Shown here: positions 4,111 to 45,670 of the stretch, piece after piece
Numbering within the stretch: the first letter of the stretch is position 1
Layout of the letters: each line of letters begins with the position of its first letter
Origin: Euzebyaceae bacterium
Lineage (GTDB): Bacteria; Actinomycetota; Nitriliruptoria; Euzebyales; Egibacteraceae
Direction: 5' to 3'
Assembly: GCA_963829805.1 (NCBI GenBank)
Contig: CAWHJR010000002.1
Location: forward strand, 4,397,418-4,461,417
Length of the DNA stretch: 64,000 nucleotides
Notes under the pieces: model-generated
What the model was told of the DNA's origin: nothing
The model's database searches: none
What the model saw: only the letters and a program-made list of their open reading frames with translations
Made by a program: the position numbers and the translations under genes

Positions 4111-4457
4111 CGGCAGGCGTCCCGGGTCCCGCGGCGAATCCCAGGTCCTGCGCATCCGGTTCCTGGCAGTGGTCGTGGTCCTGGGCATCGTGGCTGCGCC
4201 GACGGCGGGGGCGGGGGCCGCGGGCCCGGGCGAGGAGTCTCCGGACGTAGGCATGGCCGGCACCTGCAAGGGGGCGGCTGCTACCGCATGGGGATGTTCC
4301 GCGCCACCGCGGACTCGCTGATGCACACCGTGGGCCTGGCGGACGGCGGCAACCCGTTCAACCTCCCCGGCCCGCGACGTCCGCTGGCTGGCCGACGGCG
4401 AGGAGCTCGTTGCGGCTCGCGATCCGACCGGCATGCTGGCGACATGGGCCCACGGAC

Positions 4458-5218
4458 GTGACGGCCACCGGGGTCGACGGGCGCGGCCTGGCGTCCCTGC
4501 GCGGCTGGAACCTCGGCCTCACGCTGCTGCACCTCGGACAGGCGGTGGCGGTGCTTGTGCTGGCGACGGACTTCGCCGTAACCGTGACCCGGTCGCTGCC
4601 CACCGGTCCTCCGGGCACACCGCCTGGCCCGCCGGAAGCGATGTTCGATCTCCCGATCGGCCCGGCCGTCGCGGTCTTCCTTGTGCTCGCGGCGCTTGAC
4701 CACCTGCTCACCGCGACGGCCTTCCGACGCACCTACGACGCCGACCTCCGTGTCGGGATCAACCGATTCCGATGGGTGGAGTACTCCTTCAGCGCAACGC
4801 TCATGGTGGTGCTGATCGCGCTGTACACCGGCATCGACGGGATCTCGGCGCTCATCGGCATCGCCGGCGCCAACGTGGCCATGATCCTGTTCGGCTGGCT
4901 TCAGGAGTCCGCCAACCCGCCGGGCGGGCAACCGTCACCATGAAGCCGTTCTGGTTCGGCTGCATCGCGGGCGTCGCGCCGTGGGTGGCGATTGGCTACA
5001 ACGTGGTCGCCGCCGAGGAGGTCCCAGGCTTCGTCGTCGGCATCTATGTGTCGCTGTTCCTGTTCTTCAGTAGTTTTGCGCTCAACCAATGGCTGCAGTA
5101 CCGCGAGGTCGGGCGGTGGCGCAGCTACGCGTTCGGCGAGCAGGCGTACCTGGTGCTCAGCCTTGTGGCGAAGTCGGCTCTCGCCTGGCAGATCTTCGCC
5201 GGGTCGTTGGTCTCGTAG
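4458..5218 (+). pseudogene. heliorhodopsin, interrupted by one apparent 1-nt frameshift near 4920-4940
   Basis: ORF 4410..4943 carries ...NRFRWVEYSFSATLMVVLIAL...ILFGWLQE. ORF 4772..5218, in another frame, continues KPFWFGCIAGVAPW...FFSSFALNQWLQY...YLVLSLVAKSALAWQIFAGSL. The two parts are colinear with heliorhodopsin 48C12 as I recall it. The counterion Glu (RWVEYS) and Schiff-base Lys (SLVAKSALAWQ) are both present. Start is GTG 4458, with TTG 4410 as the alternative. Confidence 0.8.
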
Positions 5219-11716: not shown

Positions 11717-13141
11717 ATGGCACACCGCCTCGTCGCAGGAGTGGACTGCTCCACACAGGCCACCAAGGTCCTGCTCGTCGACGCCGCCACCGGCGCGGTC
11801 GTCGCCACGGGCCGAGCGCCCCACGAGGTGCACGGCTCCGACGGCGCCCGCGAGACGCACCCGCGGGTCTGGGAGCACGCGCTCAGGGACGCGCTCGCCT
11901 CGACGGGGCGGGCCGGGGATGTCGCAGCGATCGCGATCGGCGGGCAGCAGCACGGCCTGGTCGTACGCGACCGCGCGGGCGAACCCCTGCGCCCCGCCCT
12001 GCTCTGGAACGACGTGCGCAGCGCGCCGGACGCCGCCGCACTGGTCGAGGCCCTCGGCGCGGACGCCTGGGCCGAGCGCACGGGCAGCGTCCCGGTCGCG
12101 TCCTACACCGTGAGCAAGTGGGCCTGGCTGCGGCGTACCGAACCCGCGACGGCGGCGGCCACCGCCAGCGTGCGCCTGCCCCATGACCACCTCACCGAAC
12201 TGCTCTGCGGCGAGGCCGTCACCGACCGCGGCGACACCTCCGGCACATGCTGGTGGTCACCGGCGACCGGCGCCTACGACGACGCGATCCTGGGCCTGCA
12301 GGCCGTGCGGCTGGACCCGGCACTGCTGCCCAGGGTGCTCGGGCCGCGCGAGGCCGCAGGTCCCGTCACGTCCCTGGCCGAGAAGGCGTTCGGCCTCCCG
12401 AAGGGCGCGGTGGTCGCGCCCGGCACCGGGGACAACATGGCGGCCGCGCTGGGCCTGGGCCTGGGCCCCGGCACCCCCGTGCTGAGCCTGGGCACCTCCG
12501 GGGTGGTCTCCGCGGTGTCCCAGCGCCGCATCGCCGACCCCACCGGGATCGTGGCCGGGTTCGCCGACGCCACCGGGCGCTTCCTCCCGCTGGCCTGCAC
12601 GCTCAACTGCACGCTGGCTGTCGACCGCATCGCCGCCTGGCTGCACCTGGGCCGCGACGCCGTCACCCCCTCGACCGAGGTCGTCGTGCTGCCCTACCTG
12701 GACGGCGAGCGCACCCCGAACCTCCCCGACGCCACCGGCACGATCGTCGGCCTGCGCCACGACACCGAGCCGGGCGCGATCCTGCGCGCCGCCTACGAGG
12801 GCGCCGTCGCCTCGCTGCTGCAGGCGCTGGACCTGGTGGCCCAGCACTCCGGTGGCCTGCCCGACGACGCGCCACTCGTGCTCATCGGCGGCGGCGCAAA
12901 GGGCGCGGCGTGGCGCGACGTCGCCGGCGCGCTCTCCGGCCGCGCGCTGCAGGTCCCCGACGCCGAGGAGCTGGTCGCGATCGGCGCTGCCGTCCAGGCT
13001 GCCGCGGTCCTCGACGGCGAGGACCCGGTCGCGGTGGCCCGGCGCTGGAACACCCGCGCCGGCACCACCCTCGACCCCCGCCCGCGCGACGACGCCGCGC
13101 TGGCGCGCATCGCGAGGCTGCAGGAGATGCTGCCCCGCTAG
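11717..13141 (+). CDS. xylB: xylulokinase (FGGY family)
   Basis: MAHRLVAGVDCSTQATKVLLVD...IAIGGQQHGLVVRD...PALLWNDVRS...LPHDHLTELL matches actinobacterial XylB as I recall it. Confidence 0.85.
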   Translation: MAHRLVAGVDCSTQATKVLLVDAATGAVVATGRAPHEVHGSDGARETHPRVWEHALRDALASTGRAGDVAAIAIGGQQHGLVVRDRAGEPLRPALLWNDVRSAPDAAALVEALGADAWAERTGSVPVASYTVSKWAWLRRTEPATAAATASVRLPHDHLTELLCGEAVTDRGDTSGTCWWSPATGAYDDAILGLQAVRLDPALLPRVLGPREAAGPVTSLAEKAFGLPKGAVVAPGTGDNMAAALGLGLGPGTPVLSLGTSGVVSAVSQRRIADPTGIVAGFADATGRFLPLACTLNCTLAVDRIAAWLHLGRDAVTPSTEVVVLPYLDGERTPNLPDATGTIVGLRHDTEPGAILRAAYEGAVASLLQALDLVAQHSGGLPDDAPLVLIGGGAKGAAWRDVAGALSGRALQVPDAEELVAIGAAVQAAAVLDGEDPVAVARRWNTRAGTTLDPRPRDDAALARIARLQEMLPR

Positions 13142-13159
13142 AGCTCAGGCCGAGCGCCG

Positions 13160-13915
13160 TCAGTGCGTGGCCGTGTCGTGATGCTCGATCTCGACCGCGT
13201 GGCCGACGCCCAGGTAGCGCCTCTGCAGCTCGGGGTCCGCGAGGAGGGCGGACGCGGTGGTCTCGGCCTGGATGCGGCCGGTGACCATCACGAGCTGGCG
13301 CTCGCCGATCATCGTGGCCGCCCGCAGGTTCTGCTCGACCACGAGCACGGCGACCCCCTCGTCGACCAGGCGGTGGATCGCGTCGACCAGGGTGTCGACG
13401 ATCGTGGGGGCGAGGCCCTCCGACGGCTCGTCCATGAGCACCAGGGAACCGTTGAGCAGGAGCGCGCGCCCGACCGCCAGCATCTGCTGCTCGCCGCCGG
13501 ACAGCTGCGCGCCGCCGTTGCCGCGCCGGTCGGCGAGGCGCGGGAAGAGCTCGTAGACGGCGTCGGGCGTCCAGCGCTTGCCGCGCGTGCCCTTGGCCAG
13601 CATCCGCAGGTGCTCATCGACCGTCAGCGACGGGAAGAGCCGGCGGCCCTGCGGGACGTAGGAGATGCCCGCGCGCGCGATCGCCTCGGGCTGCTTCTTC
13701 GCCAGGTCGACGCCGTGGAACGAGATGGCGCCGCTGGTGGGGCGCACCAGGCCCATCAGCGTCGCGCACAGGGTGGTCTTGCCCATGCCGTTGCGGCCGA
13801 TGATGCAGACGGCCTCGACGCCCATCGAGAACGACACACCGTCGAGCACCTGCGACGCGCCGTACCCGGCGGTCAGGCCGGTGACCTCGAGGATCGGCTT
13901 GGCGTCCTCGGCCAT
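13160..13915 (-). CDS. ABC transporter ATP-binding protein, LivF-like
   Basis: From ATG 13915: MAEDAKPILEVTGLTAGYG...GRNGMGKTT (Walker A)...LSGGEQQML (signature)...LVLMDEPSEGL (Walker B). One-nt overlap with the upstream stop (TGATG). Confidence 0.9.
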   Translation of the reverse strand: MAEDAKPILEVTGLTAGYGASQVLDGVSFSMGVEAVCIIGRNGMGKTTLCATLMGLVRPTSGAISFHGVDLAKKQPEAIARAGISYVPQGRRLFPSLTVDEHLRMLAKGTRGKRWTPDAVYELFPRLADRRGNGGAQLSGGEQQMLAVGRALLLNGSLVLMDEPSEGLAPTIVDTLVDAIHRLVDEGVAVLVVEQNLRAATMIGERQLVMVTGRIQAETTASALLADPELQRRYLGVGHAVEIEHHDTATH

Positions 13916-14691
13916 CAGGCTGCCTCGCTGCCCAGGTAGATCTCGTGGACCTTCTCGTCGGCGCGGATCTCCTCTGGCGTGCCTGCCGCGACCGGGCGAC
14001 CGTCGGCCATCACGAAGACGCGCTCCCCCACCCGGAACGCGACGTCCATGTCGTGCTCGATCATCAGCAGGGTCTTGTCCGCGCCCAGCTCGTGCAGCAG
14101 CTCGATGAGACGCTCGCGCTCGCCGCGCGACAGGCCGGAGGCCGGCTCGTCCAGCAGCAGGATGTCGGGTTCGGTCACCACCGCCATCCCCAGCTCGAGC
14201 TGGCGCTTCTGCCCGTGGGAGAGGTCCGCGACGAGCGTGCCGAAGTGCTCGTGCAGCCAGACGGAGCGGGCGGCCTCGGCCGCGAGCTCGCGCCACGCGC
14301 GGTCGGTGGCGCCCAGCCGCAGGCGGCGGCCGCGCTTGCCCGCGACCGCCAGGTAGAGGTTGTCCTCCACGGTCAGCCCGGCGAACGAGCGCGCCTTCTG
14401 ATACGTGCGCGCCACGCCCATCCCGGGCCGCGTGCGTGACGGCTGACGGGTGACGTCCACGCCCTTGATCGTGACGCTGCCGACCGTGGGTTCCAGGTCG
14501 CCCGCGATCACGTTGAACAGCGTGGTCTTCCCGGCCCCGTTGGGGCCCAGGACGACCAGGCGGTCGCCTTGGGCGACATCGAGGTCGATGCCGCCCAAGG
14601 CGACCAGGCCGCCGAACCGCACGACGATGCCGCGCGCCTGCAGCACGAGGTCGCGCTGCGGCGGGGGCGTGACGGCGGGTTCGGCGGTCAT
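13915..14691 (-). CDS. ABC transporter ATP-binding protein, LivG-like
   Basis: From ATG 14691: MTAEPAV...GPNGAGKTTLFN...LSHGQKRQLE...LLLLDEPASGL. The rest of track ORF 13915..15321 is off-frame. Confidence 0.9.
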   Translation of the reverse strand: MTAEPAVTPPPQRDLVLQARGIVVRFGGLVALGGIDLDVAQGDRLVVLGPNGAGKTTLFNVIAGDLEPTVGSVTIKGVDVTRQPSRTRPGMGVARTYQKARSFAGLTVEDNLYLAVAGKRGRRLRLGATDRAWRELAAEAARSVWLHEHFGTLVADLSHGQKRQLELGMAVVTEPDILLLDEPASGLSRGERERLIELLHELGADKTLLMIEHDMDVAFRVGERVFVMADGRPVAAGTPEEIRADEKVHEIYLGSEAA

Positions 14692-14710: not shown

Positions 14711-16320
14711 CTAGGTCTGCGGGACGCCGTCGACGACGGGGATCGCGTTGCCGTGCCACGGCAGCTCGGCCGTCGTGCACTCCGGGAAGTCGTGGCCCGG
14801 CGGCGGGGTGTCCTCGGTGAACACGCCACCGAACGACTGGTCCACCTCGGGGATGATGTAACGGGTCGTCTGCACGATCTCGCCGCTCTCGTCGTCCAGC
14901 ACGAGCTGCGCGACGAACGTGTCGACGATGCCGGAGCGGTTCTCGTCCAGCGTGATCTCGCCGTAGGGCAGGTCGAGCGTGAGCCCGGCCAGCGCCGGCT
15001 GCAGGACCTCCGGGCTGGCGTCGCCTCCGGTCTCCTCCAGGGCCTGCACGAGTGCGGTGGCCGCGGAGTAGTACCCGTAGAAGAACCCGAAGCCGGCGGC
15101 CACGGACGGCGGGCCGGCCTCGCCGCTGGCCAGGCCGCTGGGGAGGGTCTCCCACGCGGCGTCGGCGGACTCCAGGTACTCGGTGATCTCCGGGGTGACG
15201 ACGTCACCCGGCAGCGTCGCGAAGCCGCCGACGTAGGCGCCGTCGATGCCGGTTCCCAGGGCCTGCGCCAGGCCCGGGTTGAAGAAGAGGTTTCCGGCGT
15301 GCTGGGCGCCGGTGAGGTCACCCTTGGCGTTCACGAACGCCTCGAGCGCGGCCTGCGTGCCGGTGCCGCCGACGACCCAGAAGTAGCCGTCCACCTCGTC
15401 GGGGTCGGGCAGCTGGTCGATGAACGACGAGTAGTCGGTGGTGCCCAGCGGCGGGAAGACGCGGGAGACCACGTCACCGCCTGCGCCGCAGAAGTCGGCG
15501 ACGAAGCCGGCTGCCGAGGTCAGGCCGAAGCTGTAGTCGTCCGCGATCACCGCGGCGGTGTCCCAGCCGGCCTCGTTGTGGAGGATGTCGCCGATCCCGG
15601 CGTTCCAGACCGCGCCCTCGCCGTGGAAGCGGAAGTAGTTCGGGGCCTGGACCTCGAGGGTGGACTCCTGCGAGCCGGCGATGCCGGACAGGACCGTGAG
15701 CTGCGGGTTGTCGCGGGCGTACTCGGCGACCGCGATGGCCTCGTCGCCCGAGAGCGGGCCGATGATGATCTCGGCGCCGTCCTGCTCGACCAGCGTGCGG
15801 ATCTCGGTCAGGATCGTGTCGGCGGTGTCGTCACCGCAGCCGATGCCGACCAGCTCGATGGCCGTGCCGGCCACCTCTGCTCCCTCGAAGCCGTCCAGCG
15901 CACTGGTGGTCGAGACCGATGTCGCGCCTGCGTGGTTGATGAACCCGAGCGTTGCGCCGCCGACGGTGTCCTCGTGGAAGCCGCCGAAGGCGCCCTCGCA
16001 CTCGCCGAGGATCCCGAGCTGGATGACGCCGTCGTCGCCGCCGCCGGCCGCCGCGTCGGAGGCCGGGGCCTCGGTCGGGCATCGGTGGCGGCATCGGTGG
16101 CGGCATCGGTGGCGGCATCGGTGGCGGCATCGGTGGCGGCCTCGGTGGCTGCATCTGTCGCGGCATCGGTGGCAGCCTCGGTGGCGGCCTCGGTGGCGCC
16201 GGCCGCCTCGGTCTCGGTCGCGTCCTCGGTGTCGCCGCCGCCGCACGCGGCGGCGATCAGGCCCAGGACGGCGACCAGGCAGAGCCGCAGCCAGGTGGAT
16301 CGCGTGTGGATGGTCCTCAC
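14711..16320 (-). pseudogene. ABC transporter substrate-binding lipoprotein (Liv/Peripla_BP_6 type), apparent 1-nt frameshift at 16074-16078
   Basis: GTG 16320 (GTGA overlap with the permease stop) opens VRTIHTRSTWLRLCLVAVLGLIAAAC (signal peptide plus lipobox), followed by (ATDA/ATEA)n. The mature domain (GVIQLGILGECEG...) is in the frame of track ORF 14711..16246. The join needs one extra C in a CCC run. Confidence 0.8.
16079..16198 (-). repeat. 12-bp tandem repeat, 10 units (first 5 identical: gcatcggtggcg), encoding the (A-T-D/E-A)n linker of the lipoprotein
   Basis: Read directly: units at 16079, 16091, 16103, 16115 and 16127 are identical. Five further units carry 1-3 substitutions each. 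Confidence 0.9.
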
Positions 16321-17378
16321 TGAGTTGTTCCCTTCGTTTCCGTTGCGGGCGAAGGCTCGCCCGCGTCGATCCTGCGTTCTGACAGCGGGGTGGCGGCCCG
16401 TGACCGGCGCAGCCTGTTGCCGATCCCGGCCAGCCCGTCGGGGGACAAGACCATGATCAGCAGCACGAGCACCCCGATGAGGGTGTTGAAGCGGTCCGCG
16501 GTGAGGCCGATGCGGTCGATGAGCGGCAGGTCGCGGATGTAGAACTCCGCGACGACGTAGACCAGCGCTCCCACCCACGCGCCGGCGAACGACGAGATGC
16601 CGCCGATCACCGCGATGATGAGGAAGACGATCGCCGGCCCGATGCCGATCGTGTTCGGGGTGATCTGGCCGTTGGACCAGACGAACAGCAGACCGGCGAC
16701 CGCGGCCACGAACGCCCCTAGCGTGAAGGCCACCATGCGGTGCACCGCCACGTTGAAGCCGAGGGAGGCCATGCGCACCGGGTCGTCGCGCACGCCCTGG
16801 AGCGCCAGGCCGAAGTTCGTGCCCCGGATCGCGACGAAGGCGGCGTAGACCACCGCCGAGACCGCGAGCGCCCCGTAGTAGACCCGCAGCGGGGTCGCGA
16901 AGAGCGCGGGCGGGGTGATGCTGGTGATCCCGCTCTGGCCGGACAGGTCGATGATGTTGAAGAAGACCTGGAAGCCGATCACCGCGTAGACCAGGGTCAG
17001 CATCAGGAAGTAGATGCCGGTGGCGCGGCTGGCGACGGCGCCCAGCACCAGGCCCAGCAGGGTCGCGATGGCCAGCGCGAAGAGGACCGAGACCCACGGG
17101 CTCCAGCCGAGGTTCAGCCCGCGCGCCCCGGTCGAGCTGACCGCGTTGCCGTACATGAACCCCGCGACCCCGTAGAACAGGATCTGCCCCAGGGAGGTCA
17201 TCCCGCCGTACCGCGCGAGCATCACGATCGTGGCCGCGACGATGCCGAAGATCAGCGCTCGCGACAGCACCCGCAGGATGAAGAAGTCCAGTGCGTCCGG
17301 CCCGAACGGGAGCAGCGCGAGGACCACGACGACGACCGCCGGGATCCCGACCCGCAGGGCGCGCGCGCTGCCGGTCAC
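16317..17378 (-). CDS. branched-chain-type ABC transporter permease, LivM-like
   Basis: GTG 17378 (GTGA overlap with the upstream stop). Hydrophobic multi-TM protein ...MTSLGQILFYGVAGFMYG.... Confidence 0.85.
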   Translation of the reverse strand: MTGSARALRVGIPAVVVVVLALLPFGPDALDFFILRVLSRALIFGIVAATIVMLARYGGMTSLGQILFYGVAGFMYGNAVSSTGARGLNLGWSPWVSVLFALAIATLLGLVLGAVASRATGIYFLMLTLVYAVIGFQVFFNIIDLSGQSGITSITPPALFATPLRVYYGALAVSAVVYAAFVAIRGTNFGLALQGVRDDPVRMASLGFNVAVHRMVAFTLGAFVAAVAGLLFVWSNGQITPNTIGIGPAIVFLIIAVIGGISSFAGAWVGALVYVVAEFYIRDLPLIDRIGLTADRFNTLIGVLVLLIMVLSPDGLAGIGNRLRRSRAATPLSERRIDAGEPSPATETKGTTQ

Positions 17379-22041: not shown

Positions 22042-22869
22042 TCAGAACGTTACCGCCTTGAAGGCAGCCGTTTGGCTGGTCAGGGCCTGCTCGGTCGGGA
22101 GGCGCTCCATGCTCGACGCGCCGTAGAAGCCGTGGACGCCGGTGGTGCGCTGCAGCACGTAGGAGGCGTCCGCGGGCTCGGCGATCGGGCCGCCGTGGCA
22201 GAGCACGATGACGTCCGGGCGCACGCTGCGGGCCGCCGCCGCCAGGCGGTCGACGCGCTCCACCGCGTCGTCCAGCGTGAGCGCGGTCTCGGCGCCGATC
22301 GCGCCCCCGGTGGTCAGGCCCATGTGGCAGACGACCAGGTCGGCGCCGGCGTCGGTCATCGCCTCGGCCTCCTCGGGGATGAACACGTACGGCGTGGTGA
22401 GCAGGTCGAGCGTCGCGGCGTGACGGATCATCGCGACCTCGAGGCCGTAGCCCATCCCGGTCTCCTCGAGGTTCTGGCGGAACACCCCGTCGATGAGGCC
22501 GACCGTCGGGAAGTTCTGGACGCCCGCGAAGCCGAGGCGGGCCAGCTCCGGCAGGAAGACCTCGGGCAGGTAGAAGGGGTCGGTGCCGTTGACGCCGGCG
22601 AGCACCGGGGTGTGCTGCACGACGGGCAGCACCTCGCTGGCCATCTCGACCACGATTTGGTTGGCGTTGCCGTAGGCCAGCAGACCGGCCAGCGACCCGC
22701 GGCCCGCCATGCGGTAGCGGCCGGAGTTGTAGATCACGATGAGGTCGATCCCGCCGGCCTCCTCGCACTTGGCGGACAGGCCGGTGCCGGCGCCGCCGCC
22801 CACGATCGGCTGGCGGCGCTCGATCATCCCGCGGAAGCGCTCGAGGATCTCGGCGCGCCCCTGCCTCAC
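22042..22869 (-). CDS. phosphoenolpyruvate hydrolase-like family protein (TIM barrel; homologous to the Tm-1 C-terminal half)
   Basis: GTG 22869 (GTGA overlap with the upstream stop). [64 protein letters not shown]... matches this family as I recall it. Confidence 0.75.
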
Positions 22870-24065
22870 GAGGTCACCTCCGCGAGCGCGGCCAGGACGG
22901 CCTGGGCGAACTCCGGGGCGTTGACGTGGTGGGGGACGCGCAGGAGGCGCCGCTGCTCGGTCTGCTGCACCTGGTCCTCCAGCGCCGCGAAGAGCGCAGC
23001 GTCGGCGTCGGGGTCGTGGAACGGCTGGCCGGGGGCGTCGATCGCGGAGACGCCGCCCTCCGGCAGCAGGAAGCGCACGGGTCCCTCGCAGCGGTTCAGG
23101 CGCTCCGCGAGGAACGCCCCGAACGCCGCGTTCTCCTCGGGCGTGGTGCGCATCAGCGTGACCTGCGGGTTGTGGACGTGGAAGCGGCGGCCCGAGTAGC
23201 GCTCGGGCACTGTGTCGGGCGCGCCGAAGTTCGCCATGTCGAGCGCGCCACAGGACCCGACGTACGGGACGCCGGTGCGGATCACGGCGCCGAGCCGGTC
23301 CTCGGTCGCCGGGAACACGCCGCCGCAGAGCAGGTCTGCGACCTCGGTCGTGGTCATGTCCAGCATCGCGCCGACCATGCCGGAGTCCACCAGCTTCTCC
23401 AGCGACTGGCCACCGGTGCCGGTGGCGTGGAACACCAGCGGGTCCCAGGCCGCCTCCAGCGCGGCGACCAGCTGGGTCACGAGGGCGGTCGTGACCCCGA
23501 ACATCGTCAGCCCGACCACCGGCCGCGCGTCGGCCGGCGGGGTGACCGGGTGCGCGACCATCCCCGCGACCGCGTTGGCCGCGTTGCCGAGCACGACCCG
23601 CGAGATGCGGTTGAGCCCCGCGAGGTCGGTGACCGAGTAGAGCATCGCGATGTCGGCCGGCCCCACGTAGGGCGCCACGTTGCCCGACGCCACCGTGGAC
23701 ACCAGCACCTTCGGCACGCCGATGGGCAGCGCGCGCAGGGCCGGCGCGACGATCGCCGTCCCCCCCGACCCACCGATCCCGATCATCCCCGCGACGTCCG
23801 CGACGCGCGCGACCGCGAAGTGCTCCAGCGCCACGGCCATCGCTCCCACCGCGGCCCCGCGGTCGTCGGACACGACCGCGTCGGCGCCCGCCGGGTGGTG
23901 CGCCGCGACCTGAGCCGGCGTGATGTCCGCGGTCGAGGCGTGCCCCGTGGTCCCGACGTCGACCACCACGACGGGTAGCCCCTGCGAAGCGATCACCTCG
24001 CGCAGGTAGGCGAGCTCCCGCCCCTTGGTGTCGCCGGTCCCCACCACGTACACCGACCCCATCAC
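22866..24065 (-). CDS. Tm-1-like ATP-binding domain protein (UPF0261)
   Basis: [25 protein letters not shown]...[12 protein letters not shown]...[13 protein letters not shown].... Start is GTG 24065 or ATG 24062. Confidence 0.75.
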
Positions 24066-24167
24066 GTCCTCCCGGTCCGAGGGTCGGTCAGCCTAGGCGC
24101 GCGACCGTCGTCGGCGCGGACCTTGCGGCCGCTTGACACCCGCTCCGGCCCGTGCTCTCTTGCGCTG

Positions 24168-24188
24168 CGTACAGGGCTGGATACAGCA
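24168..24188 (-). promoter_or_regulatory. candidate operator, copy B (plus-strand cgtacagggctggatacagca) in the divergent spacer between the UPF0261 gene and the frameshifted operon
   Basis: See copy A. Lies 103-123 nt upstream of start 24065 (minus strand) and 23 nt upstream of ATG 24211 (plus strand). Confidence 0.35.
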
Positions 24189-24210
24189 ACGCGGAGAAAG
24201 GGGTGTGACG

Positions 24211-25689
24211 ATGTCGTCCCTGCAGGCCCGGCCGTACGTGCTCGGCCAGCTCGCGCGCGACCTCGCCGGCGTGGTGGGCGCGGAGCACGTGAGCACCGAT
24301 CCGAGGGCGACCTCGTCGCGCAGGCCGCGGACTGGTCCTGGATGTCGCAGTTCCTGCGCCTGCGCGACCTGCCGCTGCCGGTGGCCGACGTGGTGGTCCG
24401 GCCCGAGTCCACCGAGCAGGTCGAGGGCATCGTCCGCATCGCGTCGGAGTACCGCGTGCCGGTCGTGCCGCGTGGCGGCGGCTCCGGAACGCAGGGCGGC
24501 ACCTTCGCGCTCTACGGCGGGCATCGCCGTCGACCTGACGCGGCATGAACCGCATCGTCGAGGTCGACGAGTCGAGCCTGACGGTCACCGTGCAGGCCGG
24601 CATCGACGGGTCGGTGCTGGAGAAGGAGCTCAACGGGCTGGGGCTGACGCTGCCGCACTACCCGGGCTCGCACTTCTTCGGCGCGACGATCGGCGGCTGC
24701 CTGGCGGCCCGCGGCTCCGGCGTGGTGTCCACCAAGTACGGCAAGGCCGAGCAGACTGGCGCTGCAGGTCGAGGCGGTGGTCCCACCGGGGCGGCGCGAT
24801 CGTCGACGCTGCCGGTCCCCAACCACGCCGCCGGGCCCGACCTGCTGCAGACCCTCATCGGCTCCGAGGGCACGCTCGGCATCATCACCGAGGCGACGAT
24901 GCGGCTGGAGCCGCTCCCCGAGGGCCGGCGCGTTCCTGTCCTACCAGTTCCCCACCGTCGCAGGCCGGCCTCGAGACCGCGCGCCTGATCATGACGCGGC
25001 GCATCGTGCCGGCGGCGATGCGGCTCTACGACGAGGCCGACAGCGCCAAGCTGACCTCGATGCTGGGGCTCGACACGGCGGCGTGCTGCTGGTCGATCGT
25101 GCTGGACGGCTTCGAGGCCGTCGATGGCGCTCGAGCAGGCAGCGGATCGCGGCGATCGCGACGCGCAACGCCGGCGCACGACCTGGGCGCCGGGCCCGCG
25201 CAGACGCTGGTGGGACGGCAAGTACGAGCCGTTCGCGCAAGCACAACGCCCCGGCGCCGCCGACGATCTTCGGCACGACCGACACGTGCGCGCGCTTCGC
25301 GGACGCTGCCCGGCCTGTACGAGGCGAAGAAGCGCACGATCGAGGAGGGGTTCGCCGAGTACGGCGCCCGCTACACCGCGCACTTCTCGCACTGGTACCC
25401 GTGGGGCGGGATGATCTACGACCGCTTCTACGTCGACGACGCGCCGGAGGACCCGGACGAGGCGCTCGCCCTGCACGACCGGCTGTGGGACGCGGCCATC
25501 GCGACCTCGCTGGCCAACGGCGGCGTCATCAACGAGCACCACGGTGTCGGCCTCAAGCTCGGGCGCTTCATGCGCCCGCAGTACGGCGCGGCCTTCGACC
25601 TCATGCTCGCAGTGAAGGACGCCTGGGACCCGGACGGGATCATGAACCCGGGCAAGCTGGGGTTCGGAGCACCTCGGTCAGGCTGGTAA
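24211..25689 (+). pseudogene. FAD-linked oxidase (GlcD / FAD_binding_4 family), many apparent frameshifts
   Basis: Pieces spread over all three forward frames: MSSLQARPYVLGQLARDLAGVVGAEHVSTDP | GDLVAQAADWSWMS...VVPRGGGSGTQGG | GIAVDLTR | MNRIVEVDESSLTVTVQAG...GATIGGCLAARGSGVVSTKYGKAEQ | ...LIGSEGTLGIITEATMRLEP | ...YEAKKRTIEEGF...HHGVGLKLGRFM...DPDGIMNPGKL. I estimate about 15 frame changes. Confidence 0.75.
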
Positions 25690-25716
25690 CCGCACAACGA
25701 GCGAGGGAGCGACACG

Positions 25717-26605
25717 ATGCACCTGTCGATGCACAACTGGATGCGGGCCGAGCCGCTCGAGGTGACGCTCGCGCGGCTGGCCAAGTACGGCTACGAGAGC
25801 ATCGAGATCAGCGGCGAGCCGGAGCAGTACAAGCCGGACGACGTCAAGCCGCTGCTCGCGAAGTACGACCTGCGCTGCTGGGGCTCGGTCACGCTCATGC
25901 TCGGCGACCGCAACCTGGTCGCCGGCGACGAGGGCGCAGCGCGCGCGCGTCGGTGCAGTACACCAAGGACTGCATCGACCTGGTCGCCGCGCTGAACGGC
26001 ACCGAGATGACGATCGTGCCCGGCGACGGTCGGCAAGATCACGCCGGACGCCACCCCCGAGCAGGAGTGGGAGTGGGCGGTCGCGGGGCTCAAGGAGATC
26101 TACGAGCACGCGCAGCCGCTGGGCGTGCGGCTCGCGATCGAGCCGCTCAACCGCTTCGAGACCTACTTCATCAACCGCGGCGCGCAGGCCATGGCGCTGG
26201 CGGAGGCCGTGGGCGACGAGTGCGGCGTGTGCCTGGACGCCTTCCACATCAACATCGAGGAGGCGGACCTCTTCCAGGCGATCCTCGACTGCGGTCCGCG
26301 TCTGACAGACTTCCACGCCGCCGACAACAACCGCATGCCCGCCGGGCATGGGCGACTACGACTGGGCGAAGGTCGTCGACACGCTCAAGCAGGCCGGCTA
26401 CGACGGCGCGCTGACCGCCGAGTTCGTCGCCCCGCTGGACCGCACGCCGGCCAACCCGTTCCCGAACGCGCTGGAGACCGAGCCGGTCGACATCAGCGCC
26501 GAGCAGATGAAGTTCATCGAGGACCACGGCTCGACGACGCTCAGCGAGGAGTTCTACGACTGGCTGACCGAGGAGCACGCCGAGCACCTGCTGCCGCTGA
26601 TCTAG
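25717..26605 (+). pseudogene. sugar phosphate isomerase/epimerase (TIM barrel), at least 3 apparent frameshifts
   Basis: MHLSMHNWMRAEPLEVTLARLAKYGYESIEISGEP... | SVQYTKDCIDLVAALNGTEMTIVP | ...GVRLAIEPLNRFETYFINRG...LDAFHINIEEAD...FHAADNNRMPAG | MGDYDWAKVVDTLKQAGYDGALTAEF.... SD GAGGGAG lies before ATG 25717. Confidence 0.7.
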
Positions 26606-26629
26606 GCTGGAGGAGCGACATCAGGCGTC

Positions 26630-27891
26630 ATGACGCCTCTGAGCGCGATCGCGGTCCTGGCGACGCTGGACACCAAGGGCCCGGAGGCGGCGTACCTCCG
26701 GGACCGGCTGCGCGAGCACGGGCTGACGCGCTGCGTCATCGACTGCGGCATCCTCGGCGAGCCGCTGGACATCGTCCCCGACGTGACCAGCGACGACGTG
26801 GCACGGCACTCGGGCACCTCCATCGCGGAGCTGCGCGCGGCCGGGACCGCGGGGCCGCGCGGTCGCCGCGATGCGCACGATGCTGGCCGACTACGTCGAG
26901 CGACCTGCTACGCCCAGGGGCGCATCGCGGGCGGCATCGGCATCGGCGGGGCGGAGGGCGCGGTGATGACCGCCGCGGCGCTGATGCGGCTGCCCGCTCG
27001 GGGTGCCGAAGGTCGTCGTCTCGCCGATCGCGTCCGGCCGCCACGAGTTCGGTCCGCTGGTCGGCACCCGCGACATGATGGTCGTGCACTCGGTCGTCGA
27101 CATCCTCGGCCTCAACGAGATCGCCCGCACGGTCTTCGACAACGTCGTGGCCGCGGTGGCGGGCATGGTGAACACGACCGCTCCGACCGCGGACTCCGGC
27201 CCAGAGTCCACGGCAGCAGCGCACCGTGGCGGTCACGATGCTGGGCAACACCACCAGGGCCGTGATGGCGCTGCGCGACGAGCTGGCCGAGGCCGGCTCA
27301 CCAGGCGCTGGTCTTCCACTCCAACGGCGTCGGCGGGCCGGCGATGGAGGAGCTCGCCGCGCGAGGGCTACTTCCGCGGCGTCATCGACTTCACCACCAA
27401 CGAGGTCACCGACCCGCTGGTCGGCGGCATCCACGACGGCGGCCCCGACCGGCTGCGCGTGGTCGGCGAGCTCGGGCTGCCCCAGGTCGTGGTGCCCGGC
27501 TGCATCGACTTCGCGGTCTTCGAGCCGTCGCAGGTCCCGCCGGCGCTGGCCGACCGGCCCAGCTACGACCACAACCCGGAGTTCCGGCTGATCCGCACCT
27601 CGCGCGCAGGACATGCTGCACGATCGCCGGCATCTTCGCGCGAGCGGCTCGGCGCGGCGCAAGGGCCCGGTGCGCGTCGCCGTCCCGACCCGCGGGCTGT
27701 CCATCCCGAACGTCCCGGACGGCCCCTTCTGGGACCCGGAGGCCGACGCCGCGTTCCGCGACCGCGCTGCGCGAGCGAGCTGCGCGCCGACATCCCCGTC
27801 ACCACCCACGACCACCACGTCAACGACCCCGAGTTCGGCCGCGTGGTGGCCCGACTCGTTCCTCGACCTCATCCAGGAGGCCCCCGCATGA
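26630..27891 (+). pseudogene. Tm-1-like ATP-binding domain protein (UPF0261) paralog, about 10 apparent frameshifts
   Basis: MTPLSAIAVLATLDTKGPEAAYLRDRL... | GRIAGGIGIGGAEGAVMTAAAL | LGVPKVVVSPIASG...VVDILGLNEIARTV | VAVTMLGNTTRAVMALRDEL | LVFHSNGVGGPAMEEL | YFRGVIDFTTNEVTDPLVGGI...PGCIDFAVF | GPVRVAVPTRGLSIPNV... | ...FLDLIQEAPA. By eye, roughly one third of residues are identical to the intact copy at 22866-24065. Confidence 0.7.
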
Positions 27892-28815
27892 CCTCCAGCA
27901 TCTCCCGCAACGTCCCGCACCTCACCAGCGGCGACGAGCGAGTTCCGCGTCGAAGTTCCGGTCCTGGGCACTGGCCGACCTGTCCTACGTCGACATCCGC
28001 GAGTACCTGAAGACCAAGGACCTGGTGCTCGTGCCGATGGCGAGCACCGAGCAGCACGGCCCGCACCTGCCGCTCTACACCGACACCATCACCGCGCATC
28101 GAGGTGAGCGCGCGGGTCTCCGAGCACATCGGCGGTGCTGCACACGCCGCCGCTCTGGGCGGGCTACTCGCCGCAGCACATGCACGCGCCCGGGCGAGGG
28201 CCGCGGGCACGATCACCCTGCGCTCCAGCACGCTGCTCAACCTGATGTACGACGTCGCGCGCAGCCTCATCCACCACGGCTTCAACCGGATCGATCTTCA
28301 TCAACGGGCACGGCTCGAACACGAAGGTGGTCGACCCGGTGCTGCGCCGGCTGCGCTACGAGACCGGCGCCATGATCGGCTTCGTCAAGCCCTACATGGA
28401 GCGCTACGTCGGGATCCTCGAGGGCCTGATGGAGAACCCGCCCGAGGAGACCCCGGGCTGGCACTCCAGCGAGCTGGAGACCTCCCAGGACATGGCGTGG
28501 AACCCCGACCTCGTGCGCATGGAGCGGGCCGAGGACACGCGCGCCGCAGGTCCCGGACTTCCTGCCCGAGTCCTTCCGCAAGACCGACGGCGCCCCGGAT
28601 GTGGAGTTCGAGGGCTACAAGTACTTCAGCTTCCCGATGGACCACCACGAGTTCATCGACAGCGGCACCATCGGCAACCCGCATGCGCGCGACCAAGGAG
28701 AAGGGCGAGGAGGCGTTCCGCCGCTACTCCGAGCACGTGGCGCAAGGGCGTCCTCGAGCTGATGGACGTCCCGGTCAAGGTCCACGACCGGGAGTTCGTG
28801 GACAGGGTGATGTGA
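27888..28815 (+). pseudogene. creatininase (creatinine amidohydrolase) family protein, about 8 apparent frameshifts
   Basis: ATG 27888 (ATGA overlap, SD CAGGAGG). WALADLSYVDIREYLKTKDLVLVPMASTEQHGPHLPLYTD | EVSARVSEHIGG | VLHTPPLWAGYSPQHM | GTITLRSSTLLNLMYDVARSLIHHGFNRI | FINGHGSNTKVVDPVLRRLRYETG...GWHSSELETS | ...FEGYKYFSFPMDHHEF | MRATKEKGEEAFRRY | VLELMDVPVKVHDREFVDRVM. Confidence 0.7.
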
Positions 28816-28853
28816 TGGTCGACCAGCCCGGCAGCTGACGGCCCGTCGCGTCG

Positions 28854-29546
28854 ATGGTCGACGACGTCTACGCGTCGCTGCTGACGCCATCGTCGAGGCG
28901 CGGCTGCGGTGCGGGCACCCCGCTGTCGCAGAACAAGCTGGCCGCGCGCATGGGGGTCAGCCGCACCCCGGTGCGCGAGGCGCTGCTGCGCCTCGAGCGC
29001 GACGGGCCTGGTCCAGCGCCTGCCCGAAGCCGGGTTCGCGGTCGCCACCATCACGCCCGACGAGGTCGAGGAGGCCTGCGACCTGCTTGCGCTGCTGGAC
29101 ACCTACGTCTACGGACGCGGGCGGCCGGCGCACTGTCGCGCCGAGGAGCTGGAGCGAGCTGCTCGCGCTGGCCGCCGAGCCTGGTGGACCACGGCCGAGG
29201 CCGGCGACGCCGAGTGCGTGGCGGGTCGCCGACCGCGCGCTACCACGCGCTGGTGATGGCGGCGGCGCGGCAACCGCTTCGTGGCCCAGGACGCTGCAGC
29301 AGACGCGTCGGCGGGTGCAGCGGTTCTGGCTGCCGGACGCCGCACTTCGAAGGGCGGCTGCGGCTCTGCTCGCAGGACCACGTCGCGCTCGCGCAGGCGA
29401 TGGGCGACCACGACGAGGACGAGGTCGCGGCACGCGTCACCGCGCACATCGACCGGCTGCGCGCCAACGTGCTGGACCGGCTGGAGCGCGCCGCGCCCCT
29501 GCTGCCGCGGCCCAACCCGTTCGCGGAGGCGCGGTTGGCACCCTGA
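28854..29546 (+). pseudogene. GntR/FadR-type transcriptional regulator, several apparent frameshifts
   Basis: MVDDVYASLL... | PLSQNKLAARMGVSRTPVREALLRLERDG | LVQRLPEAGFAVATITPDEVEEACDLLALLDTYV | ... | HVALAQAMGDHDEDEVAARVTAHIDRLRANVLDRL. This gives a winged HTH plus an FCD-like C-terminal domain. Confidence 0.6.
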
Positions 29547-30311
29547 GTGGTCCTGGAGCTCTTCGACCTCACGGGACGGCTGGCGGTCGTCACCGGGTGT
29601 AGGCGTGGGATCGGGTTCGCGATGGCGACGGCCCTGGCGGAGGCCGGGGCGGACATCGTCGGGGTGAGCGCTCAGCTGGCGACGGGGGACGAGGTGGAGC
29701 AGGCCGTGCGGGCGCAGGGCCGGGCCTTCACCGGGCATCGTGCGGACCTGGCGTCGCGTGCGGAGCAGGACGCGTTGATCCAGGCGCTGGAAGCCGACGG
29801 GCGGCCCGTGGACATCCTGGTCAACAACGCGGGAACCGTGCGGCGCGCACCGTCCGAGGAGCACGGGGACGCCGACTGGGACCACGTGCTGGCGGTGAAC
29901 CTCGACGCACCGTTCCGGCTGGCGCGCGCGTTGGGGCGCGGGATGCTCGAGCGCGGCCGCGGCAAGGTGATCTTCACGGCGTCGGTGCTCAGCTACCAGG
30001 GCGGGTTCATGGTGCCGGGCTACGCCGCCAGCAAGCACGCGCTGGCCGGGGTGACGCAGGCCCTGGCCAACGAATGGGCGTCCCGCGGCGTCAACGTCAA
30101 CGCGATCGCGGCGGGCTACCTCGTCACGTCGGTGACGGACGCGCTGCGCGCCGACCCCGTGCGCTCGCGGCAGATCCTGGAGCGCATCCCGGCGGGCCGC
30201 TGGGGCGAGCCGCGCGACCTGGCGGGGGTCACCGTGTTCCTCGCCTCAGCGGCATCCGACTACGTGCACGGTGCGCTGGTGCCCGTCGACGGCGGCTGGC
30301 TGGGCCGCTAG
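29547..30311 (+). CDS. kduD: SDR family oxidoreductase, 2-dehydro-3-deoxy-D-gluconate 5-dehydrogenase-like
   Basis: GTG 29547 directly follows the upstream TGA. LFDLTGRLAVVTGCRRGIG...ILVNNAG...SYQGG...YAASKHALAGVT...NVNAIAAGY...RIPAGRWGEPRDL...VPVDGGWLGR is colinear with E. coli KduD as I recall it. Confidence 0.72.
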   Translation: MVLELFDLTGRLAVVTGCRRGIGFAMATALAEAGADIVGVSAQLATGDEVEQAVRAQGRAFTGHRADLASRAEQDALIQALEADGRPVDILVNNAGTVRRAPSEEHGDADWDHVLAVNLDAPFRLARALGRGMLERGRGKVIFTASVLSYQGGFMVPGYAASKHALAGVTQALANEWASRGVNVNAIAAGYLVTSVTDALRADPVRSRQILERIPAGRWGEPRDLAGVTVFLASAASDYVHGALVPVDGGWLGR

Positions 30312-32282: not shown

Positions 32283-32455
32283 TCCTGGGCTCCTTCTAGG
32301 ATCGCACCTGCGGGCCGCAGACGGCCGGAGGCGCCGCGGTGGCTGTGGACGACCGCGCGCCGCCCGGAAAGCAACATCGCCGACCTCGACGCCGAAGCCC
32401 TCGCGGCCGCGGTCCACACCGTCTGGTCCCAATCCTGAAGCGACAGCCGTGTCGT

Positions 32456-45571: not shown

Positions 45572-45670
45572 TTGGGGGCGCCTGCCGCTTGAGTGTCGGC
45601 TCTCCCCCATGTCTCGGCAGCCCGCGGACGACAGGCTCCTTCTCAGTAGCCCACACACGAGGAGGACGTC

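Follow-up and report, generated by a model that had tools for sequence, protein, structure and literature searches.

Single-base frame disruption of a five-gene cassette in a Euzebyaceae metagenome contig: a probable consensus chimera of divergent haplotypes

In reductive genomes, e.g., that of Mycobacterium leprae, pseudogenised operons present a whole transcription unit that can no longer be read between intact neighbours; real decay leaves stop codons and inherited lesions, with dN/dS relaxed and deletions varying in length. Homopolymer indel errors of Nanopore sequencing give a second route to disrupted reading frames, single-base indels leading to frameshifts. A third is strain collapse: Flye collapses conspecific strains into consensus contigs (PMC8302730), and frameshifts have been documented to arise mainly from indels (PMC9262707); the errors so described in long-read metagenome assemblies are local mosaics and gene-truncating 1-nt indels, confined to microdiverse regions (PMC8302730; PMC9262707). 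The locus described here shares the unreadable unit and intact neighbours with Mycobacterium leprae-type decay, without any of its hallmarks. It resembles the collapsed-strain errors in the features listed, but is an extreme case with sharp limits (~45 frameshifts in 5.3 kb vs. 0 in 7.7 kb of flank), its indels are mostly explicit tandem alleles rather than homopolymer changes, and part of the admixed signal resembles the cassette of another organism.

The window, i.e., the whole stretch of 64,000 nucleotides that was analysed, belongs to a Euzebyaceae contig of 4,699,500 bp (CAWHJR010000002.1); sister contigs carry names of the form contig_N (Flye-style). Over five plus-strand genes, from 24.2 to 29.5 kb, coding phase switches ~35–45 times, and the neighbouring genes each keep a single phase. 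A GC3 frame plot with 6-state Viterbi segmentation resolved ~35 phase segments in 24157–29339 and a phase constant for 1–6 kb in the flanking genes. Frameshift-aware alignment of intact orthologous proteins to the DNA required ~45 frame corrections (~1 per 118 nt), ~39 of them for one extra base, and none in an intact Microbacterium control; this purpose-written, zero-frameshift-controlled alignment replaced plain tblastn against orthologues, which bridged short compensated shifts and gave too low a frameshift count. By both methods the frame switching reported in the first-pass annotation is present at its coordinates, far above chance; the two extra bases placed there at 24520–24545 were located at 24522 and 24544, and the frame change near 24303 was seen at ~24300–24303.

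Compared with L001 and L002, independent metagenome contigs from the same organism with flanks 98–99.9% identical to the window, substitutions and 1-nt indels are raised over 24252..29501 (plus strand), the limits being the first and last excess differences. Judged from sequence, we put at roughly 0.88 the probability that this block is a consensus or polishing chimera of at least two divergent haplotypes, limited to a conserved mobile cassette. Two origins had been proposed initially, a mis-polished assembly patch and a silenced, decaying operon; the former stands, with merged haplotypes rather than generic low quality as its probable cause, and the latter is not supported, given the private indels, the reversal of the insertion/deletion bias, the dS values, and the stop codon count reported below.

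Between the UPF0261 gene (minus strand) and the FAD oxidase gene (plus strand), the divergent intergenic/promoter region (24066..24210) is conserved and unaffected, with only 1–4 differences among the window, L001, and L002; GGAGAAAGGGG stands upstream of the ATG at 24211. The FAD-linked oxidase gene (GlcD-like; 24211..25689, plus strand) needed 10 frame corrections; its repaired product matches PF01565 and PF02913 (FAD_binding_4 and FAD-oxidase_C) over their full length at 115.8 and 85.6 bits, above the gathering score. GlcD itself was rejected, the Microbacterium orthologue scoring under the GlcD equivalog cut-offs. The xylose-isomerase-like TIM-barrel gene (AP_endonuc_2; 25717..26605, plus strand) needed 3 corrections and gave 144.8 bits over profile positions 1–234 of 249, above the gathering score; NCBIfam similarity to IolO and D-psicose 3-epimerase stayed below threshold, at 131–134 bits vs. 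an equivalog cut-off of 300. For the UPF0261 gene (Tm-1/MarK-type ATP-binding; 26630..27891, plus strand), one of the 10 corrections was merely the natural stop/start overlap at 27888, leaving ~9 real ones; PF06792 and PF23189 matched full-length (166.5 and 209.6 bits), so that both the N- and the C-terminal domain are there. Kinase activity in this family is known for MarK only (PMC12624787), and the kinase-likeness of the window protein is a prediction.

The UPF0261 stop, TGA at 27889–27891, overlaps the ATG of the creatininase-family gene (PF02633; 27888..28815, plus strand), which ends with a stop at 28813–28815 and needed 9–10 corrections, each for one extra base. Its repaired product (305 aa; PF02633 202.6 bits) aligns gap-free to intact alleles, with 92% identity to L002 and 93% to P0001; it is a PF02633 member and neither the creatinine amidohydrolase of TIGR04448 (134 vs. 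a cut-off of 235) nor IolN (102 vs. 245). The GntR/FCD regulator gene (28815..29546, plus strand) needed 12 corrections. Its natural ATG at 28815 overlaps the creatininase-family stop, its longest open ORF begins at 28854, and a 21-nt insertion at ~28825 is private to the window; once repaired, the protein has an N-terminal GntR wHTH and a C-terminal FCD domain (71.1 and 62.8 bits).

All five repaired proteins are thus full-length family members by Pfam, with 0–1 stop codons in ~1,740 codons. Earlier statements on the preserved features of the operon held: the gene identities agree with Pfam; the motifs GGGSGTQGG, EQHGPHLPL, INGHGSN, IGIGGAEG, and RTPVREALLRLERDG were each found in the repaired proteins; the ATGA at 27888–27891 and the TGA/ATG junction at 28813–28817 are both there; and the flanking genes 22866–24065 (minus strand) and 29547–30311 (plus strand) are intact. 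The left flank (22042..24065, minus strand) consists of UPF0261 (22866–24065) and a PEP-hydrolase-like TIM barrel (22042–22869), a split Tm-1-like pair, in a single phase, with full-length Pfam matches and nearly identical in L001. In the right flank, the short-chain dehydrogenase (29547..30311, plus strand) has the same protein sequence as its counterparts in two short-read contigs and in both L001 and L002 (dS 0.005–0.015). A scan of metagenome contigs with this invariant SDR gave no match above 70% identity, and a scan of genome contigs with the flanking UPF0261, for an outgroup to the window, gave as best match a 75%-identical Euzebyaceae MAG with no synteny.

The cassette is intact in Microbacterium (L049/L050), and a complete intact version, here called B-type, is present in short-read k141_ contigs (L132–L135); conservation is ~80–93% across phyla. 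These copies match the window in their five genes, the gene order, and the overlapping junctions, and encode proteins of 491–494 (FAD oxidase, intact in L050/L133), 294–297 (TIM barrel, intact), 411–414, 305, and 232–248 aa. The four repaired enzymes of the window are 58–83% identical to those of Microbacterium, the GntR regulator 41%. Unlike the window, the Microbacterium and L132–L135 copies have no frameshifts, and they lie near ABC transporter, GFO/IDH/MocA, or LutABC-like genes. The cassette occurs in unrelated contexts, among them a plasmid, and is clearly horizontally exchanged. With intact orthologues, assignment to Pfam families, and NCBIfam scores below cut-offs, its initial description as an uncharacterised catabolic module, once repaired, is fair; no literature link of UPF0261 with creatininase-family genes was found.

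Both L001 and L002 carry the same operon, disrupted at positions that differ from those of the window. Pairwise mismatch in the block is 8–12%, with private indels in addition, vs. 0–2% in the flanks. Private indels in the block (insertions/deletions; nearly all 1 nt) number 37/7 in the window, 24/16 in L001, and 5/21 in L002, and in 7.7 kb of flank the window has none; the insertion/deletion bias is thus reversed from assembly to assembly. Some 40 of the 45 window frameshifts are private; of the few that recur in another assembly, some coincide with L001 and others with L002, a pattern that fits no tree. A three-way majority consensus of the window, L001, and L002 yields long clean ORF stretches, the whole GntR gene included, and two short-read Logan contigs carry the exact intact 232-aa GntR allele, as do L001 and L002. 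Programmed frameshifting or recoding was rejected on the differing shift positions in the three assemblies and on the orthologues without shifts.

Block dS is 0.17–0.21, vs. ~0.01 in the flanks, with dN/dS of 0.26–0.37. Block substitutions are biased to third positions and synonymous changes, with a C<->G spectrum of real divergence; the synonymous share is 50–70% in most segments, except in the GntR gene, where window-private substitutions are 28 non-synonymous vs. 12 synonymous. This excess may reflect misalignment around the 12 insertions, an explanation that is incomplete. Basecalling error induced by DNA modification was rejected, as was targeted hypermutation, on the synonymous bias of the substitutions, their agreement with known alleles, and their differences from one assembly to another.

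These data bear on genuine pseudogenisation, in which a silenced operon would decay mainly through small indels, acquired separately by each lineage. Disruption of all five genes between intact flanks, its presence in L001 and L002 as well, and the handful of frame changes common to assemblies would agree with it. We nevertheless regard it as highly improbable: a flank dS of ~0.01 leaves too short a time for 8–12% divergence and 30–45 private indels per lineage, shared events conflict (window with L001 vs. window with L002), lineages of the same species show no single indel spectrum, substitutions are synonymous-biased, and short-read contigs from the same population carry an intact allele. 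For pseudogenes, relatives had been expected to share the indels and to show in-frame stops and raised dN/dS; the private frameshifts, the near absence of stops after repair, and the dN/dS values are contrary to this.

The composition of the insertions adds to the case against decay and bears on a second alternative. In an independent five-way alignment including a foreign allele, 26 of 32 isolated 1-nt window insertions (81%) consist of two known alleles side by side (13.6% expected by chance; P = 1.1e-17), which no mutational process yields; in the three-way alignment, 16 of 31 window insertions pair the base of L001 with that of L002 (5.7% expected by chance; P = 1.6e-12). Tandem alleles account for 9 of 21 L001 insertions (P = 6e-4), and 8 of 19 L002 deletions fall on polymorphic columns (P = 7e-5). 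A simple low-coverage or unpolished patch, i.e., raw long-read error, mainly homopolymer indels, free of haplotype mixing, would likewise be local and consist mostly of 1-nt indels, and at least one isolated frameshift does occur elsewhere in the assembly, in a heliorhodopsin gene. It is very unlikely on four counts: the tabulation of indels against homopolymer context that had been suggested shows only 8 of 31 window insertions to lengthen a same-base neighbour, in contrast to Nanopore homopolymer errors; indels coincide with polymorphic sites much more often than chance would give; synonymous-biased substitutions matching known alleles are unlike random read error; and three independent assemblies are affected in exactly the same 5.3 kb.

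A mosaic is also evident in the substitutions. At the 44 sites of the repaired creatininase where alleles A (L002) and B (P0243) differ, the window has A at 20 and B at 22, with 18–20 switches between the two and 0 private residues. Among private substitutions, the B-type base makes up 59% in the window, 43% in L001, and 15% in L002, and the frameshift load tracks this B-likeness (45, 34, and 11). Splits are conflicting (104/115/41). The mosaic and runs analysis was made on sites where two assemblies agree, L002 alone as resident allele being confounded by L002-private changes; B-calls are scattered rather than in tracts (66 runs, 46 of them singletons), and somewhat clustered (z = -6.4). Natural fine-scale recombination, i.e., a real mosaic from many gene-conversion events with diverged donors together with real indels, would draw on that clustering, on alleles shared with a foreign cassette, and on the horizontal exchange of the cassette; it would call for ~66 distinct tracts within 5.2 kb, the majority spanning a single informative site, and tandem alleles cannot arise in this way, which leaves it extremely improbable as an account of the block. 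A few short genuine recombination tracts may be present within it.

Merged haplotypes would account for these patterns as follows. Reads of at least two divergent versions of one cassette, a putative set of FAD oxidase, TIM-barrel isomerase/epimerase, UPF0261 kinase-like protein, creatininase-family hydrolase, and GntR/FCD regulator, may have piled up at the same position of a single 4.7-Mb contig in what was probably a long-read metagenome assembly; the consensus itself suggests such a pile-up. The extra versions would come from co-occurring strains and/or from other organisms with the cassette. The presumed polisher would then have picked bases site by site, giving a fine-grained chimera; at many polymorphic sites both alleles would have been retained adjacently, adding one base and shifting the frame, and in L002 the more frequent outcome would have been that both alleles were dropped, with one base lost. 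Only over the cassette would the haplotypes be close enough for foreign reads to be drawn in, and damage would therefore begin ~40 nt inside the first gene and stop ~45 nt short of the end of the last, as the block does. The initial remark that the damage coincides with one transcription unit is correct, the block being bounded by one cassette, and that exact coincidence would arise because divergent haplotypes merged there.

The same artefact could have arisen from a diverged paralogous cassette in the organism's own genome or on a plasmid, with reads cross-mapping in polishing. Noise bounded by the coding limits of the cassette, and the mobility of the cassette between unrelated contexts, plasmid included, would suit such a source. 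It is unlikely, as a second copy sought within the 64-kb window gave only the distant UPF0261 paralogue at 22866–24065, the 4.7-Mb contig contributed no creatininase match among the best 120 relatives, and more than two alleles are needed: 29 columns show three states in the alignment of the window, L001, and L002, and ~40% of window-private substitutions have no counterpart among the compared alleles. As for merged haplotypes in general, the B-type contig is only 78–83% identical to the window at the DNA level; it would thus be a relative of the contaminating haplotype, not that haplotype itself.

A tentative further reading, which we hold to be somewhat improbable, is that several cassette alleles (~10–20% apart, dS ~0.2) occupy the same chromosomal slot of an otherwise near-clonal population (flank dS ~0.01), with replacement boundaries at the cassette ends; if true, alleles of the whole cassette would have been replaced repeatedly, or a metabolic module would be held in balanced polymorphism. 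The biological weight of the locus is otherwise small, this being an ordinary conserved, horizontally mobile catabolic cassette whose five genes the cells almost certainly carry intact. The practical warning is that a public 4.7-Mb contig contains a 5.3-kb patch, probably chimeric, that mimics a decaying operon, and that gene fragments from it are already in protein databases, e.g., P0241 (window 29400–29546), the 48-aa GntR piece that is all the gene caller of the source record kept of the regulator. The tandem-allele test distinguishes haplotype-merging artefacts from true pseudogenes with one or two related assemblies and without reads, and could be used on other "frameshift-rich islands" in long-read MAGs. 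The isolated frameshift in the heliorhodopsin gene, which is split at ~4931 in a GGGCGGGC context, fits the homopolymer type.

Because the G+C content of the window is about 72%, coding phase was tracked by third-position G+C, and the whole 64 kb was segmented with a GC3 frame plot and a six-state Viterbi path. Nearly all of it falls into single-phase segments of 1–6 kb each; at 24157–29339 the Viterbi path gives about 35 phase segments, on the plus strand throughout. Brief GC3 phase changes at 45575–45644 and 16176–16354, in or between genes that otherwise keep one phase, may reflect compensated indels, small genes, or noise. Frame corrections were counted by frameshift-aware protein-to-DNA alignment against the intact orthologues of all five genes from a Microbacterium genome (L050). 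About 45 are needed, about 39 of them for one extra base: 10 in the FAD oxidase, three in the TIM barrel, 10 in UPF0261 (one merely the natural stop/start overlap), 9–10 in the creatininase-family gene, and 12 in the GntR/FCD regulator, all plus-strand genes; the intact control needs none under the same procedure. The first-pass annotation, which described five genes broken by dozens of frame switches between two intact flanking genes, with diagnostic motifs and gene junctions preserved, is borne out in each respect: all listed motifs are present in the repaired proteins, and the junctions persist (ATGA at 27888–27891; TGA/ATG at 28813–28817). After repair, 0–1 stop codons remain in about 1,740 codons, and the proteins match their profiles over full profile length (FAD_binding_4 and FAD-oxidase_C; AP_endonuc_2; UPF0261 N and C; Creatininase; GntR and FCD). 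The frameshifts are thus real in the file; they are not a biological feature.

Two metagenome contigs of the same organism, L001 (ERZ25039494 contig_23992) and L002 (ERZ25039550 contig_39787), cover the same locus. In a three-way alignment, the flanks of the window, L001, and L002 differ by 0–2%, and the SDR of the right flank (29547–30311) has an identical protein on L001, L002, and two short-read Logan contigs; the block (24250–29500) differs by 8–12% in every pair. Each of the three sequences carries its own 1-nt indels within the block (private insertions and deletions: window, 37 and 7; L001, 24 and 16; L002, 5 and 21), and the 7.7 kb of flank in the same alignment contained no window-private indels. 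Restoring the frame takes about 34 corrections in L001 and about 11 in L002, at positions that differ from those in the window. The few coincident frame changes, some common to the window and L001, others to the window and L002, fit no tree, and a majority consensus of the three brings back long, uninterrupted reading frames, the complete GntR/FCD protein among them. Private positions, tree-conflicting coincidences, and the clean consensus together identify the lesions as independent additions to an intact underlying sequence.

The first-pass annotation had also considered a silenced operon decaying mainly by indels, and this is contradicted by the substitutions. Between assemblies, dS is 0.005–0.015 in the SDR and 0.17–0.21 in the block, where dN/dS is 0.26–0.37; neutral decay would have to run 15–30 times faster than adjacent synonymous sites, which is not possible. 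Block substitutions favor third codon positions, with 50–70% synonymous in most segments, and their C<->G-rich spectrum, also that of the true flank divergence of L002, is the one expected of true divergence when a genome is GC-rich. The window and L001 have more insertions than deletions and L002 the reverse, a switch that indicates a technical cause and not a mutational one.

At many window-private insertions, a single base in the relatives corresponds to two in the window, and this pair is made up exactly of the two alleles found in the relatives: GC at 24522 (L001, G; L002, C), CT at 26908 (relatives, T and C), and CG at 27640 (relatives, C and G). Such tandem alleles occupy 16 of 31 isolated insertions in the three-way alignment (expected 5.7%; P = 1.6e-12) and 26 of 32 in an independent five-way alignment including a foreign allele (expected 13.6%; P = 1.1e-17); only eight of the 31 extend a same-base neighbor. 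The 26 also include the sites 28096, 28133, 28682, and 29004. L001 shows the same signature at nine of 21 insertions (P = 6e-4), and eight of 19 deletions in L002 fall on polymorphic columns (P = 7e-5). No mutational process known to us places the two alleles of a polymorphism next to each other; a consensus caller faced with a mixed-haplotype pile-up can. At the creatininase/GntR junction (28813–28861), two copies of GATGGTCGAC, 38 nt apart, bracket a 21-nt insertion private to the window; translation from the natural GntR start (ATG 28815) meets a stop after seven codons, and a second start lies at 28854. Two N-terminal variants of unequal length appear to have been retained in tandem, a tandem-allele error on a larger scale.

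The repaired creatininase-family protein, which aligns without gaps to its 305-aa family, stands midway between two real alleles, A (that of L002) and B (a foreign type, represented by P0243/P0001). A and B differ at 44 sites; the repaired protein agrees with A at 20 of these and with B at 22, switches between them 18–20 times, and has no private residues. Short-read (k141_) contigs L132–L135 carry the B-type cassette complete and undamaged in a different genomic context, which assigns it to another organism. At the DNA level, the B base accounts for 59% of private substitutions in the window, 43% in L001, and 15% in L002, and the splits among private substitutions are strongly conflicting. 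Where two assemblies share a base that is not the B base, the B-calls of the window form 66 runs, 46 of them single-site, which are not conversion tracts. B-call frequencies of 15.6% (window) and 16.9% (L001) are over twice the homoplasy baseline of 6.8% seen in L002, and the frameshift load follows B similarity (window, 45; L001, 34; L002, 11). More than two alleles are needed, since 29 columns have three states and about 40% of the private bases in the window match no allele in the comparison.

Reads of at least two divergent versions of the cassette would have been stacked at one contig position. A consensus picking bases site by site would yield a chimera, and at variant sites an allele aligned as an insertion rather than a mismatch would leave a base duplicated or dropped. 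Foreign reads would be recruited by the cassette alone, no other stretch being similar enough between haplotypes or organisms; excess differences begin at 24252, which is 41 nt inside the first gene, and end at 29501, and the promoter region (24066–24210) and both flanks are clean. Platform, polisher, and read composition are those we infer for this account. The extra haplotypes may be other alleles of this locus within the species, copies of the cassette carried by other members of the community, or a paralogous copy at another site in the genome; a search for a second copy within the 64-kb window found none. That several 10–20% divergent alleles truly share one chromosomal slot in a near-clonal population is possible but rather doubtful; if true, it would be of modest interest.

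The source record in NCBI/ENA is a contig of 4,699,500 bp. Such a length for an organism not in culture, and the Flye-style naming of the sister contigs, suggest assembly from long reads. The Flye assembler collapses conspecific strains into consensus contigs (PMC8302730), and indels are the main cause of frameshifted ORFs (PMC9262707). Microbacterium and the short-read B-type contigs both carry the whole cassette in intact form, and the exact 232-aa GntR allele of L001 and L002 lies on two short-read Logan contigs, adjoining the identical SDR. From the GntR gene, the source annotation recovered only P0241, a 48-aa fragment corresponding to window 29400–29546, which now sits in a public protein collection clustered with the intact 232-aa allele, an example of an assembly chimera seeding databases with fragment proteins. 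A heliorhodopsin gene (PF18761; 4410–5218, plus strand) is split by a single frameshift near 4921–4943 into two ORFs (4410–4943, profile positions 1–146; 4772–5218, positions 146–242); given its CCGGGCGGGC context, the break probably reflects an isolated indel error of the ordinary kind in this assembly.

The five genes are a conserved, mobile module, encoding a GlcD-like FAD-linked oxidase, a xylose-isomerase-like TIM-barrel enzyme (similarity to IolO and D-psicose 3-epimerase sub-threshold), a UPF0261 protein, a creatininase-family hydrolase (scoring below the cut-offs for creatininase proper and IolN), and a GntR/FCD regulator. The only characterized UPF0261 member is MarK, an ATP-dependent aromatic-ketone kinase (PMC12624787). 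A pathway of oxidation, phosphorylation, ring or amide hydrolysis, and isomerization acting on a cyclic polyol- or lactam-like substrate is plausible from these assignments. The creatininase-family protein is unusually conserved (about 80–93% identity across phyla, namely Actinomycetota, Chloroflexota, and a verrucomicrobial plasmid; always 305 aa, gapless), whereas the adjacent GntR regulator shows only 41–69% identity (67–69% for relatives from Euzebyales and Egibacteraceae). A UPF0261 relative in a Euzebyaceae MAG has 75% identity; with the GntR relatives from Euzebyales and Egibacteraceae, it puts the organism close to Nitriliruptoria. Partners vary: branched-chain-type ABC transporter and GFO/IDH/MocA genes in Microbacterium; LutABC-like CCG/LUD genes and further FAD oxidases on the B-type contigs; here, a UPF0261/PEP-hydrolase pair with GFO/IDH/MocA and TIM-barrel genes on the left, and the SDR and a ROK protein on the right. 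This variation, with the contrast between hydrolase and regulator, suggests a mobile module with a strongly constrained putative hydrolase step.

The left-hand UPF0261 and PEP-hydrolase-like TIM-barrel genes (22042–24065, minus strand) overlap by 4 nt and form a split counterpart of the plant Tm-1-like fusion. A 1-nt insertion in L001 (2452–4551) joins them into a single 699-aa ORF, and in L002 the pair is broken into four pieces, so scattered indel errors occur outside the block in the sister assemblies too. The strains also differ in structure: L001 carries an extra 1.2 kb with a beta-lactamase-family gene (12822–14030, against window 32369–32371) and about 1 kb in place of window 35.9–41.2 kb; past about 16400, L002 encodes a CW_binding_2 surface protein and a group II intron maturase. 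Divergence is 4–5%, with a few indels, in patches at 32.5–33.0 and 34.5–35.5 kb.
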